16,073 bases of DNA from a virus (IMGVR_UViG_2923307698_000005); one strand, 5' to 3'. Shown: positions 12,974 to 16,073, numbered from the stretch's first letter. Notes: generated by a model not told the origin, from the letters alone. Program-made: numbers and translations.

Positions 12974-13175
12974 AAAGCATCCCCTGAATATTCGTGTTAA
13001 TCATTCCGGCACGTTTTGTGATTTCCTGTAATGATTCCCTTGTGGCGACAATTGCTTCATCTGGTAAGTGGTAATTACACACCACGCGACCTTTATCCAC
13101 ATTGACCAGTAGCTGCCCTGTGAATTTCTCACGAAACTGAATGCGGTTAAGGTCAGTAAGTGACAGATTAATCAT
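12963..13175 (-). CDS. Hypothetical protein (70 aa from the ATG at 13175)
   Basis: AGGAGG six nt upstream of the ATG at 13175; the start overlaps the upstream stop (ATGATTAA). The track's longer ORF to 13217 has no ribosome-binding site. Confidence 0.45.
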   Translation of the reverse strand: MINLSLTDLNRIQFREKFTGQLLVNVDKGRVVCNYHLPDEAIVATRESLQEITKRAGMINTNIQGMLYAQ

Positions 13176-13365
13176 GGCGCACCTCCTGACGAATACGGGC
13201 GGCAAATACAGCAACACAACCGGACGGGCAACGGTTACGCGCTTCGCGTTCCGTCCAGGCGGTTACGTGGATGATTTGAGATTCTCCGGCACTCAGTGCC
13301 AGAAAACGCCACACAAAGGCCGTTTGTGTGTGTACAAGGTGTGGTATATGATTTACGGCAACCAT
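13168..13365 (-). CDS. Hypothetical protein (65 aa from the ATG at 13365), first gene of the minus-strand early operon
   Basis: AGGAG five nt upstream of the ATG at 13365. The track's extension to 13467 would run through operator palindromes and a hairpin. Confidence 0.4.
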   Translation of the reverse strand: MVAVNHIPHLVHTQTAFVWRFLALSAGESQIIHVTAWTEREARNRCPSGCVAVFAARIRQEVRHD

Positions 13366-13445
13366 AACGGCTCCTAGTTTACGTTGTTGGTTAGAAGCCC
13401 CGTTACTGCTCCTACAGTGCGGGGCTTTGCTTTTTGTGTTGATTG

Positions 13446-13491
13446 TGTGTAATGTGTCATTACACATAAATACATTACATGAGGTGTAATT
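13446..13491. promoter_or_regulatory. Paired operator-like inverted repeats in the divergent control region: TGTGTAATG-TGT-CATTACACA (13446-13466) and CATTACA-N5-GTGTAAT (13473-13491)
   Basis: Read directly. Four copies of the TGTAATG/CATTACA half-site between the minus-strand early operon and the plus-strand Arc-like gene, overlapping the Arc-like gene's ribosome-binding site. Confidence 0.45.
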
Positions 13492-13494
13492 AAC

Positions 13495-13674
13495 GTGTCA
13501 ATACACAAAAACGAAAGGCGTGGTAATCCTCCGTTCCAGTTCCGTTTAGATCCTGACTTACGGGAAAAGATGGAAAAGGCACAACAACAGGACGGCGATG
13601 ATTCTCTTGCTGCCTGGATAAAGCGAATAATCCGCAAAGAATTACAGCAACGCGGCATAGAACCCAAAGGATAA
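13495..13674 (+). CDS. Arc-family ribbon-helix-helix DNA-binding protein (59 aa, GTG start)
   Basis: Not in the ORF track (under 60 aa). GTG at 13495 with GAGG ten nt upstream. Translation VSIHKNERRGNPPFQFRLDPDLREKMEKAQQQDGDDSLAAWIKRIIRKELQQRGIEPKG matches the Arc-type pattern: a PPxFxLRL beta-strand followed by two helices. Confidence 0.6.
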   Translation: MSIHKNERRGNPPFQFRLDPDLREKMEKAQQQDGDDSLAAWIKRIIRKELQQRGIEPKG

Positions 13675-13731
13675 AAACTATCAGCGCCGTGGTGTGAGGA
13701 ACTACGGCGCATTTCTTTACAGGAGTAGACA

Positions 13732-13917
13732 ATGAACAACGAAGAATTACGGGAAATCGCATTATCCATACTTGAAAGACAGGTAGAAAAAAAATTAAGA
13801 GAAATGGATGAAATGCCTGACCATGAACAGGAAGCAAGGCCAAAAAGATTTGCCCTTGAGGATTTTCTTAAAAATTGCCCAAGAAAGATGAGATCGTGGC
13901 GTTGTTGTCCGCCCTGA
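13732..13917 (+). CDS. Hypothetical small protein (61 aa), cotranscribed with the Arc-like gene
   Basis: ATG with AGGAG six nt upstream; charged, helical-looking translation; followed by an intrinsic terminator. Confidence 0.5.
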   Translation: MNNEELREIALSILERQVEKKLREMDEMPDHEQEARPKRFALEDFLKNCPRKMRSWRCCPP

Positions 13918-13994
13918 TGACAGATTTGCCAACCAGCCCAAAATGTGGCATCGTTGTCGATGCATAGTGTAATCAACATGTATATCATATTTTT

Positions 13995-14021
13995 GCGACC
14001 ATCATAGGTCGCATTTTTTTT
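13995..14021 (+). terminator. Rho-independent terminator of the plus-strand Arc-like operon
   Basis: Stem GCGACC/GGTCGC with loop ATCATA, followed by ATTTTTTTT. Confidence 0.6.
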
Positions 14022-14074
14022 GCCTGTAATCCGGCAATTGTGGCGCTTCTTCACACAGTTGATATAATTCCAAT

Positions 14075-14145
14075 GCTCATATTTATTTTTTGTGCAGCAG
14101 GTTAATCGTTCACAAAGGCGCTCAGGTAACTGGGCGCTTTTTGTT
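14075..14145 (+). ncRNA. Candidate small RNA, about 70 nt, with its own promoter and terminator
   Basis: Extended -10 promoter TGaTATAAT at 14060-14068, predicted start near 14075, and a strong intrinsic terminator at 14118-14145 (stem GCGCTCAG/CTGGGCGC with one G-U pair, loop GTAA, then TTTTTGTT). No plausible ORF inside. Confidence 0.3.
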
Positions 14146-14291
14146 ATGCCTGAAAAACCCCAATTTTGTTGTTTTTCAGTTTCACCAGGGCGAACGAATC
14201 CCCGCCCACGTTCTGGCGTATATTCAATCTTCATGGTTATAGCTCTGTGTTCAGATGATTGATGTGTGGCGGCTGTGTGCCGCCAGCGTGA

Positions 14292-14480
14292 TTAATGAAC
14301 TGCCTTGCAGCTATCCTTCCAGGCCAGAACCTCGGATAAAGACCAGCCAACGGAACGACCGCCAAGTTTACGACGTGATGGGAATTGTCCGGCCTTTTCC
14401 AGGCGGTAGCGACACGTACGGCTAAGGCCGGTTAGTTTTTTGCATTCTTTTTCACGTATAAACCGATCAGTGCTTAACAC
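14292..14480 (-). CDS. alpA: AlpA-family transcriptional regulator / excisionase-like protein (62 aa, GTG start)
   Basis: Translation LTGLSRTCRYRLEKAGQFPSRRKLGGRSVGWSLSEVLAW matches the AlpA/Xis-type helix-turn-helix pattern. The ORF has no internal ATG; the GTG at 14480 is preceded by AGGGGG. Lies immediately downstream of the integrase gene. Confidence 0.8.
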   Translation of the reverse strand: MLSTDRFIREKECKKLTGLSRTCRYRLEKAGQFPSRRKLGGRSVGWSLSEVLAWKDSCKAVH

Positions 14481-14750
14481 TATTGCCCCCTTTCGTTTCT
14501 TAAAGAGTCATCAGGTGTCTTATTGTGTCGTATTGTTCCCGCTAGAGTGATGAATGGCAAATACTGAGGATGTATGATTTACAGAAAATGAAACAGTAAG
14601 AATAAAATCTTTTAAATTCATGTTAATACAAAGGCATAAAATATTGTTCCATGCCTTTTTTCTCGCTCTTTAAAGAGTGATTCGCTAGTGTATAAAAACC
14701 AGTAACACATTAAAAATCAGCCACTTATAAATCCGTACGCTTTTTCGCCT

Positions 14751-14800
14751 CTTGTTCGTAGTTGTTCCACATTGTTGCTCATTGTTGCACGTTGTATCTG
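14751..14800 (-). repeat. Site C: four to five 10-bp-phased (C/G)AACAA repeats on the minus strand (gtgCAACAAt gagCAACAAt gtgGAACAAc tacGAACAAg)
   Basis: Read directly. The minus-strand string GTGGAACAACtACGAACAA matches site B (GTGGAACAACcACGAACAA) at 18 of 19 positions. Lies 44-93 bp downstream of the integrase stop. Confidence 0.4.
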
Positions 14801-14843
14801 TTCGCATATCCAGTATGCGCATACTGAAAAAACACGAAAAAAA

Positions 14844-16073
14844 TTATTTTCTTCTGGCTACTGGTAGTGCGGTTACGTTTTCATGTGTTCCCGCCAGTAT
14901 CCCTAACCGCTCCATCCACATATCCAGCGCATTGCGTTTAGCATCCAGATAACGGGAATGATTATAAACTCGCTGCATTCCTGGCATCTGGTGGCCTGTA
15001 AGCTGCTCCACGACGTGAGGATCCACGCCTAAATCGTTCAGCATCGTTGTAAAGGTGCGCCGGATGTCATGTAGTGACCAGTGAGGGTGATTTAGCCTCC
15101 TGTGCGCTAATCTGCCGTACTGCGACACGCTTGTTTCCTGTTTCACTTCCCCCAGCAATAAGCCCGTGTGCCTGTTCTGCTCCACCAGCTGCGTGACGAA
15201 CGGCAGTATTGCTTCCGGTATGGGCCGGAATATGGCTACCTTCGTTTTGCTGTGCTCCTTCGGAACAGTCCAGAGCATTTCGGTAAAATCCCACTCGCCG
15301 ATCTCCGATAACCTAAGTTCGACCGTCCGGCATCCGAACACAATCAGGAGGCGGATTAGCGCGATGTAGTAGGGGGAGAATATTTTTTTGTCCAGTGCCT
15401 GCAATAATTCGCCAAGTTCTTTGTTGCTTAAGACACGCTCGCTTATATCCGGTTTTTTCCCAACGTCCGCCACACTCATATCATCAAGAACGTTGCTGAT
15501 TGCATAGCGCCGCTTCCGGCAGAACTTAAGCGCCTGCTTGCATGTCTGTAGCAGGAACCCGGCGGAAACAGGGGCTTGCTTTGCCACCCGATCAAAACAG
15601 GCCAGCCAGTGCCGTAGCTCGCATTTATCCAGCGGCATAGGGCCAATGTGCTGTATTACGTGATTATTTAGCCGCTTTTTCAGTGGGTCATAATCCACAC
15701 GGTTTTCCTTTGCGTACGACTCAAGCCAGTAGGTGAGCGCATCACCAACCGTTACCGGCTTTAACGCTTCCTGTACGGTGTAATTAAGCTCATGACGTGG
15801 ATTTTTCCCCTCTGCCAGCCATGCGCGACACTGGGCGGCTTTTTCCCTGGCTGATTTCAGGCTCAGATCAGGATAATTTCCCAGCTTAATGCGTTCCGGT
15901 GGTGCCCCCCTTCCCGTTCCGGCCCTGTAAGTGAAATACCAGGTTAAAAGGCCACTGGTTGAATGCCTGACGCTCAGGTTTCCACCGTCATTAAGAAAGG
16001 CTGTTTTTTGGGCGGGTGTGCCGTTGATTTTCCTCAGCTGTGTATCGCTCAGTTTGTTAAGTGCTCTGCTCAT
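14844..16073 (-). CDS. Tyrosine site-specific integrase, P4-like (409 aa)
   Basis: Catalytic-domain motifs near the C-terminus (HDIRRTF, GHQMPGMQRVYNHSRY) and an N-terminal DNA-binding region. The ATG is the reverse complement of the last three bases of the window. Confidence 0.93.
   Translation of the reverse strand: MSRALNKLSDTQLRKINGTPAQKTAFLNDGGNLSVRHSTSGLLTWYFTYRAGTGRGAPPERIKLGNYPDLSLKSAREKAAQCRAWLAEGKNPRHELNYTVQEALKPVTVGDALTYWLESYAKENRVDYDPLKKRLNNHVIQHIGPMPLDKCELRHWLACFDRVAKQAPVSAGFLLQTCKQALKFCRKRRYAISNVLDDMSVADVGKKPDISERVLSNKELGELLQALDKKIFSPYYIALIRLLIVFGCRTVELRLSEIGEWDFTEMLWTVPKEHSKTKVAIFRPIPEAILPFVTQLVEQNRHTGLLLGEVKQETSVSQYGRLAHRRLNHPHWSLHDIRRTFTTMLNDLGVDPHVVEQLTGHQMPGMQRVYNHSRYLDAKRNALDMWMERLGILAGTHENVTALPVARRK

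Follow-up and report, generated by a model that had tools for sequence, protein, structure and literature searches.

The satellite island and the genes around alpA

The window analysed here, that is, the whole stretch of 16,073 nucleotides from the virus IMGVR_UViG_2923307698_000005, is a capsid-forming Gram-negative PICI satellite of the same type as the island of E. coli E110019 and EcCIEDL933. Its positions 13300-14900 (1.6 kb) are 99.9% identical to the E110019 island, which lies between phoQ and roxA and is annotated with int, alpA, an Icd-like gene, a replication module, a PerC-type regulator and its own capsid, portal and terminase. The island carries its own packaging genes without tail or lysis genes, measures ~15 kb and occupies a specific chromosomal site, as is characteristic of capsid-forming PICIs, and EcCIEDL933 (OI-51 of EDL933) has the same layout and the same phoQ-roxA site. 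We note that the E110019 copy of the satellite may be defective, judging from RefSeq, which records its prohead protease as frameshifted and its RepA-type helicase as having an internal stop (L001, 8814-9385 and 12040-13446).

The genes and predicted elements around alpA are collected in Table 1. Besides its PHROG match, the Arc-like gene has an NCBIfam YlcI_YnfO_N match that falls below that family's cutoff. Beyond the Icd-like gene, which is the first recognisable gene downstream of the connector ORF described below, the remainder of the island lies on the minus strand.

Table 1. Genes and predicted elements of the alpA region, with positions counted in the window.
Feature	Position	Strand	Basis
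int	14844-16073	-	island annotation
alpA, PICI activator, upstream on the target strand	14292-14480	-	Pfam Phage_AlpA, E = 5.7e-17
Connector ORF, predicted antisense target, 286 codons	14234 to 13374	-	ORF scan and relatives
Predicted small RNA, ~68-71 nt	14075-14145	+	deduced from the spacing of promoter and terminator
Intrinsic terminator: stem 14118-14125 / 14130-14137, loop GTAA, U-run 14138-14145	14118-14145	+	fold prediction
Core GCAGyrGGyTAwyyGTTCAsAAAGG, 25 nt, predicted single-stranded	14093-14117	+	conserved in all classes
Variable 5' domain, weak U-rich stem-loop in the window	14075-14092	+	differs among classes A, B and C
Extended -10, TGaTATAAT (TGATATAAT)	14060-14068	+	sequence signal
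t1, which ends the Arc-like operon ahead of the small-RNA promoter	13994-14021	+	terminator scan
Second small ORF after the Arc-like gene	13732-13917	+	
Arc-like / YlcI-YnfO ribbon-helix-helix gene	13495-13674	+	PHROG Arc-like repressor, E = 2.5e-6
Icd-like gene	13168-13365	-	NCBIfam phage_ICD_like, E = 1.4e-17

Several further elements were seen in the intergenic regions. Between the Icd-like and Arc-like genes, a near-perfect palindrome (TTGTGTGTAATG-tgt-CATTACACATAA) occupies 13443-13469, and TGTAAT/ATTACA repeats continue from it up to 13498; the palindrome is likely the operator of a divergent control region. A motif found by eye, TTAAAGAGT(C/G)AT, is repeated at 14497-14511 and 14666-14681, on either side of the presumed alpA promoter region, and is a possible binding site for AlpA autoactivation. 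The spacer between int and alpA (14632-14662) contains a conserved hairpin, AAAGGCAT...ATGCCTTTTTT (14632-14656), with U-rich sequence on both sides and a stem that covaries (GCGTAAAA/TTTTACGC in other islands); this spacer hairpin is probably a bidirectional terminator that ends int. The same spacer was considered as the site of a third plus-strand RNA unit and was not called an RNA gene, the upstream TATGAT not being conserved.

The promoter-terminator unit facing alpA

The earlier note had proposed, immediately after the Arc-like operon, a small plus-strand RNA bounded by an extended -10 promoter and an intrinsic terminator, and both signals lie where it placed them. The promoter motif deserves caution. 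TGNTATAAT occurs once in the window, both strands counted, and since 0.47 extended -10 elements are expected by chance and 77 of 200 shuffled sequences contain at least one, the motif by itself is not significant. A usable -35 is absent in the window, where TTGTGG at 14038-14043 would give a 19-nt spacer. It is the comparative evidence, and not the motif alone, that raises the observation above chance level.

The transcript is predicted to start at G14075, the seventh nucleotide after the -10, and to end within the U-run at 14138-14145. Its 5' domain is the part that differs among relatives: class B (the classes are defined below) has 12 additional transcribed nucleotides, and a consistent structure or covariation of this domain across the classes was sought and not found. 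Common to all classes are the sequence GCAGyrGGyTAwyyGTTCAsAAAGGCG, the hairpin and the T-run. The core is conserved despite an overlapping minus-strand frame without amino-acid constraint, and it is a candidate pairing or Hfq-contact region; a terminator hairpin with a U-tail beside a conserved stretch of 25 nt that is predicted to be unpaired is also the layout of Hfq-dependent sRNAs. No conserved plus-strand ORF lies between promoter and terminator. A 10-codon ATG ORF at 14073 was considered as a small peptide and rejected, its ATG being CTG in relatives.

The terminator hairpin is formed by GCGCTCAG, GTAA and CTGGGCGC at 14118-14137, followed by TTTTTGTT at 14138-14145, and A-U pairs could lengthen its stem outward from 14112. 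The 77-nt stretch 14074-14150 has a predicted folding energy of -25 kcal/mol (z = -3.7), a value equalled by none of 200 shuffles. Two versions of the stem occur among relatives, GCGCTCCG/CGGGGCGC and GCGGCTCC/GGGGCCGC, which differ by a coordinated extra G-C pair while keeping the same overall length. The second stem pair is A-U in the type of the window and C-G elsewhere, both sides having changed; one variant turns a C-G pair into U-G, and another loses the loop-closing pair. Every version of the hairpin contains a U·G pair, and because this pair would become a C·A mismatch in a minus-strand RNA, the hairpin is predicted to be better formed in the plus-strand transcript, the strand that also has the U-run. 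From the hairpin, the U-run and the compensatory changes, the unit would thus yield a short transcript with an intrinsic terminator of the sar and OOP type. As to covariation, which the earlier note had named as a check, compensatory stem changes are present, but formal covariation is thin, with just one pair showing a classical double change. RNAalifold gave only a weak consensus on the ungapped alignment, because the two stem versions differ in register and are mixed there.

As a separate observation, a simple terminator scan did not report the hairpin at 14118-14145 in either of two runs, while RNAfold predicts it strongly; by eye, it fits the rule of the scan, with 8 pairs, a 4-nt loop and 7 T in the next 8 positions.

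The comparison set consisted of 135 fetched loci with 47 unique variants of the module. A 251-nt query centred on the unit splits into two independently conserved segments whose overlap is exactly the hairpin, and the right border of the left segment (14007-14145) is the last base of the U-run. Between divergent islands this segment is the best conserved part of the region, with 86-88% identity; the alpA region reaches 75-76%, and the short aligned pieces left of the module 80-85%. The 5' sequences fall into three classes: class A, with the TGATATAAT promoter, includes the window and CFT073; class B, with TTGCCC-17-TATCAT and the longer transcribed leader, includes the O157 strains (EDL933 among them) and Shigella; class C, with TTCACT-17-TATAAT, comprises the islands with an intact antirepressor gene. 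A TAnnnT hexamer is found at the equivalent site in 46 of the 47 unique variants (TATAAT in 24, TATCAT in 19, TAAAAT in 2, and TACAAT and TATAAC in 1 each), 39-51 nt upstream of the invariant core in classes A, B and C. Across the upstream half of the 16 unique sequences of class A, no invariant block is longer than TGATATAA. A lack of conservation of promoter and terminator in related elements, which the earlier note had named as grounds for refutation, is not what is seen: the -10, the spacing and the hairpin are kept in three divergent classes over the 135 loci. A palindrome in the class A promoter, GTGGCGcttCGCCAC, was considered as an operator and discarded, one half of it being free to vary.

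The classes differ in what precedes the module. In class A, t1 is a hairpin (13994-14013) followed by T8, reported by the simple terminator scan and supported by a compensatory change in relatives (GCGACC/GGTCGC versus GCCACC/GGTGGC). The two stacked plus-strand terminators that the earlier note described are therefore present in the window, but not in class B, which is without t1 and in which only the module hairpin ends the Arc-like operon. Class C has the hairpin ~10-15 nt past the stop codon of ant, the antirepressor gene on the opposite strand. These arrangements bring forward a rival explanation, namely that the RNA is functionless as a product: the hairpin would be a terminator between convergent genes, shielding alpA and int from transcription of the Arc-like operon and ending ant, and the promoter would be a polymerase roadblock acting by transcriptional interference, or else a tolerated by-product. 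The position of the hairpin in classes B and C is what this reading would expect, a comparable bidirectional hairpin follows int, and formal covariation is limited; in class B, part of the hairpin's conservation does have another explanation, because the hairpin is the only terminator of the Arc-like operon there. It accounts less well for class A, in which the covarying t1 already ends that operon ~100 nt upstream, so that a second terminator needs a transcript of its own. The -10 is, moreover, the most conserved upstream block across classes that otherwise do not align, the core from promoter to hairpin is invariant, and the hairpin, through its U·G asymmetry, is weaker on the strand that carries ant. 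The class A arrangement, with two covarying terminators 100 nt apart and a conserved -10 between them, points to a second transcription unit and is otherwise hard to explain, and we regard a functionless RNA as unlikely.

The placement of the module is nearly fixed. The earlier note saw a discrete plus-strand unit that follows the terminator of the Arc-like operon and converges on alpA, and this description holds well beyond the window: alpA is next to the module on the opposite strand in 125 of 135 loci (median distance from the core, 187 nt), an Arc-like gene lies upstream on the same strand in 127, and an Icd-like gene occupies the opposite strand in 129. Intact copies of ant separate alpA from the module in 46 of the 135; islands differ in in-frame deletions or truncations of ant, each of which ends at the U-run of the module and leaves the module intact. 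In the window, where ant is deleted, the codons that follow ATG 14234 (MKIEYTPERGRGFVRP) correspond to the N-terminus of an antA/antB (BRO-N) antirepressor (14186-14240 in the window; compare L006 1749-2549 and L011 2571-3371).

A 111-nt query matched 483 of 5,426 complete E. coli genomes, CFT073 among them, and the model islands EcCICFT073 and EcCIEDL933 both carry the unit. The predicted RNA would map to ~3008201-3008270 on the plus strand in CFT073 (NZ_CP158446.1); in EDL933 (NZ_CP008957.1) it would be ~85 nt long and run on the minus strand from ~1682340 to ~1682258. A pattern scan of IMG/VR returned at least 120 matching stretches, and nearly all of the matches listed have the module. A strict-pattern scan of one genome per species found it solely in S. 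flexneri and E. ruysiae, plus one chance match; every carrier found belongs to Escherichia or Shigella, and diversity is limited to that extent. Taken on these comparisons, the module is probably a genuine small-RNA gene that has gone unannotated.

The connector frame on the minus strand

The earlier note had seen no ORF between promoter and terminator. That statement applies to the plus strand; on the minus strand a 286-codon ORF (14234 to 13374) runs through the whole unit. This connector ORF begins at the former start codon of ant/BRO-N (ATG 14234), reads through the putative small-RNA gene and both terminators, continues antisense to the Arc-like genes, and in the window ends at a TAG (13376-13374) inside the Shine-Dalgarno sequence AGGAG of the Icd-like gene. 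In all 15 annotated loci first examined, the minus-strand frame through the hairpin is free of stops over 166-530 codons, while the other five frames contain 2-31 stops over the same span. Across the 135 loci the connector ORF has a median of 371 codons and ranges from 166 to 606, frames that run off a contig end being left out of that range. It is continuous with the Icd-like domain in 89 loci, and in the others it ends a few nucleotides before the Icd-like start.

A real minus-strand protein, such as the 247-aa hypothetical protein annotated in EDL933, could in principle explain the conservation and leave promoter and terminator as accidents. The frame is indeed open in every locus, and PGAP sometimes calls a CDS in it. 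Yet variable sites are spread evenly over the three codon positions (17/22/18 in class A, 32/36/32 in class C), the translation is rich in Cys, Ser and Arg, as is typical of an antisense frame, and a family match was sought for the middle part and found nowhere outside the Icd-like end and the ant remnants. Coding constraint, besides, cannot explain the compensatory stem changes or the U·G pair, and we consider this explanation very unlikely. Because variable sites are even over codon positions, it seems that the absence of stops is selected and the amino-acid sequence is not; translation of the connector transcript, in other words, appears to matter, while the sequence of the resulting protein does not. 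This suggests that the read-through transcript must be translated, most simply in order to escape Rho. Indel lengths along the connector ORF, examined for multiples of three, were obscured by the many spurious 1-nt gaps that local alignment introduces into such divergent, mosaic sequence.

The start of the connector takes three forms. In 41 loci it is an ATG after GGAGG that overlaps the stop of an intact ant; in ~60 loci, the window included, a deleted or truncated ant, fused in frame, supplies the start codon; and the third form, an ATG only 21-24 nt away from the hairpin centre, is found in 23 loci. The 3' end of the predicted RNA would pair ~5-22 nt from the connector start codon in 64 of the 135 loci, 41 of which have the start with the GGAGG Shine-Dalgarno overlapping the ant stop. 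In the window and ~60 other loci it would pair 85-240 nt inside the ORF (over codons 29-53 in the window), which is too far for a direct block of initiation.

Three further observations concern this strand. The connector ORF overlaps the Arc-like genes antisense, in the frame in which wobble positions coincide. PGAP calls for the region are inconsistent among RefSeq records: in EDL933 (L141, NZ_CP008957.1, 1682169-1682912) the 247-aa hypothetical protein is placed on the alpA strand and the Arc-like genes are omitted, while elsewhere there are pseudo "Icd-like" or "BRO-N" fragments, plus-strand Arc-like genes in other genomes, and N-terminally extended Icd-like proteins that overlap the Arc-like gene. 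Finally, a second plus-strand unit of similar design lies at 13342-13437. It has an extended -10-like element inside the first Icd-like codons (TGgTATATGAT in the window; TGgTATGAT, TGgTATAAT or TGaTATGAT in relatives) and a covarying hairpin at 13398-13425 with a T-rich tail (stems GCCCCG/CGGGGC, GCCCGG/CCGGGT or GCCCTGC/GCGGGGC), and it would be antisense to the start codon and Shine-Dalgarno sequence of the Icd-like gene (13363-13376). Such a unit might encode an antisense RNA of its own or form the leader of the Arc-like operon.

Possible antisense control of alpA read-through

The helper phage switches on AlpA, an activator that is needed both for expression of the gene downstream of alpA and for induction (PMC6092414). 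Gram-negative PICIs are not known to have a repressor, and their founding paper left it unclear whether a global one exists (PMC6092414). How these islands are silenced, and how AlpA reaches beyond the ~1-kb gap that follows alpA, are the questions on which the unit bears: placed in that gap are a conserved and easily mutable RNA gene, an Arc-like repressor gene and an open frame.

We tentatively suggest that the RNA acts as a cis-antisense brake on alpA read-through, of the kind represented by P22 sar and lambda OOP, a reading that is the best supported of those considered but in which our confidence falls slightly short of even. Control of the alpA transcript, one of the two roles that the earlier note had envisaged, is plausible because the RNA is by construction fully complementary to read-through from alpA, and the putative promoter lies, as in sar and OOP, opposite the target operon and belongs to the unit itself. 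A sigma-70 promoter, with the extended -10 seen in the window, would fire towards alpA and give a ~70-nt RNA that ends at the conserved terminator. This RNA would be perfectly complementary to the minus-strand transcript leaving alpA, or alpA-ant, which must cross a connector ORF of ~0.9-1.6 kb on its way to the Icd-like gene and to the genes for replication and packaging. While the island is silent, leaky read-through from alpA would be damped by this RNA together with its convergent promoter: pairing near the connector start could lead to RNase III cleavage and/or loss of translation, and then to Rho-dependent termination or transcriptional interference. When the helper phage turns alpA on, strong minus-strand transcription would override the small-RNA promoter. 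In the 64 loci where the duplex would end close to the connector start, it should be near enough to affect initiation; in the window, where it would lie further inside the frame, cleavage or interference would have to act. Production of the RNA, its action in cis and each step past pairing are inferences.

A broader version of this idea is also conceivable, in which PICI induction is gated by translation-dependent read-through of the 166-606-codon connector and antisense RNAs switch that read-through off. Translating ribosomes would protect the transcript against Rho and against the terminator hairpins that it crosses, and only the openness of the frame would be selected. The Arc-like repressor operon and two plus-strand units with extended -10 elements would be embedded antisense in the connector ORF, one of them the RNA near the connector start and the other lying over the start region of the Icd-like gene (13342-13437). 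We consider such gating rather doubtful.

For pure cis pairing the invariant single-stranded core is superfluous, which hints at a role in trans or at contact with a protein. The RNA might accordingly be a trans-acting, Hfq-dependent sRNA whose core or class-specific 5' domain pairs with mRNAs or sRNAs of the host or the helper phage, its place beside alpA being incidental. The model for this reading is provided by AgvB and AsxR of EHEC, prophage anti-sRNAs that are encoded behind PR' in lambdoid prophages and act as sponges for core small RNAs (PMC4104026). The layout matches that of AgvB and AsxR, with a 5' part that varies, a 3' part that is conserved and a U-tailed terminator (PMC4104026), 25 single-stranded nucleotides are kept invariant without coding constraint, the gene is retained whatever the fate of ant, and several generic small-RNA models align with it end to end below threshold. 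These sub-threshold Rfam matches (sau-6072, SpF41, STnc50 and STnc40) reflect only a generic hairpin-plus-terminator shape; no Rfam family matched anywhere in the window at its gathering score, and the single AgvB match (E = 7.2, chance level) lies elsewhere on the minus strand, with none for AgvB or AsxR at the feature. Nor did targets emerge within the island: no complementary site of at least 11 nt occurs elsewhere in it, and a search for target boxes in the window and 10 relatives gave only scattered, chance-level matches of 9-10 nt, none of which recurs at an mRNA start region. Pairing with the start of the Arc-like mRNA, which matches at 11 of 13 positions in the window, is no better than in shuffles and is absent in 14 other loci. 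A duplexfold scan of the whole window for pairing sites was uninformative. In 125 of 135 loci the unit keeps its position and orientation with respect to alpA, which is not something that a free-standing trans regulator needs, and we judge a purely trans-acting sRNA to be improbable.

Earlier descriptions of the unit were also sought. The PICI papers, the Pas and EcOnc catalogues and the O-island review make no mention of it: the EcOnc small-RNA list has no entry for the island, and the O-island review lists no small RNA for OI-51. A literature search with the core sequence found no paper, and the portions of the EDL933 start-site and RNA-seq supplements that were available have no entry near the predicted coordinates. 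The Pas sRNAs were considered and set aside, as they are located in lambdoid prophages or in structural-gene operons that also occur in phage genomes, and the present region has no match in the phage collection. The Hfq-CRAC table for Sakai has no SpLE2 entry; Sakai may lack the island altogether, because OI-51 is limited to clade 9 and three clade 5 strains (PMC8565820).

If the cis-antisense brake is real, it would give a testable mechanism of silencing, and of a threshold, for a family of satellites that roughly one-tenth to one-quarter of complete E. coli genomes carry. Should the model prove wrong, many pathogenic strains still carry in this unit a small-RNA candidate that has not been annotated. 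Reporters, induction assays and transfer assays exist for both EcCICFT073 and EcCIEDL933, which carry it.

The candidate can finally be set beside the known systems that it recalls. Like AgvB and AsxR, it would be a short mobile-element RNA that converges on a neighbouring gene and whose 3' part is conserved while its 5' part varies; unlike them, it has no Rfam match at the feature, and its setting is not a lambdoid PR'.

The C4 RNA of P1 and P7 and the CI RNA of P4 are processed from a sense leader and act on separate complementary boxes, in the logic of c4, icd and ant. The earlier note had drawn its analogy from P4, and in that reading the RNA would bind nascent transcripts of the island or the helper phage and cause premature termination. 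The surroundings are those of a satellite: alpA and an Icd-like gene are present, as in the P1 immI region, and the expected outcome, blocked read-through into icd, would be similar: here too an RNA would guard an icd-type gene, and the proposed block to translation of an upstream frame would stop transcription before the downstream genes. The candidate, unlike C4 and CI, would be cis-antisense and lies not in an operon leader but on the opposite strand, with a putative promoter of its own; no C4, CI or IsrK model matches around the feature even at E<=10, and the island is without repeated target boxes. The analogy with P4 immunity does not hold on these grounds, and we give an RNA immunity of this type almost no weight.

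Lambda OOP RNA, 77 nt long, is constitutive and convergent, ends near the 3' end of cII at its own terminator and forms an RNase III-sensitive duplex; it overlaps the end of the cII coding sequence and lowers cII. In class C loci, the position of our candidate relative to ant is very similar. The difference is that its duplex would fall after the ant stop, on a transcript that runs into the next frame.

P22 sar RNA belongs to the immI region with arc, ant and mnt; it is ~69 nt long, has its own promoter, is antisense to the ant operon, acts by pairing with its transcript, competes with the convergent promoter and covers the ribosome-binding site of ant, upstream of that gene. Our candidate has no sequence similarity to sar, its element is a PICI and not a phage, and it lies downstream of ant, over early codons of the connector. 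As with sar, nonetheless, what is found is a small antisense unit with its own putative promoter, set beside an Arc-like gene and an ant/BRO-N gene.
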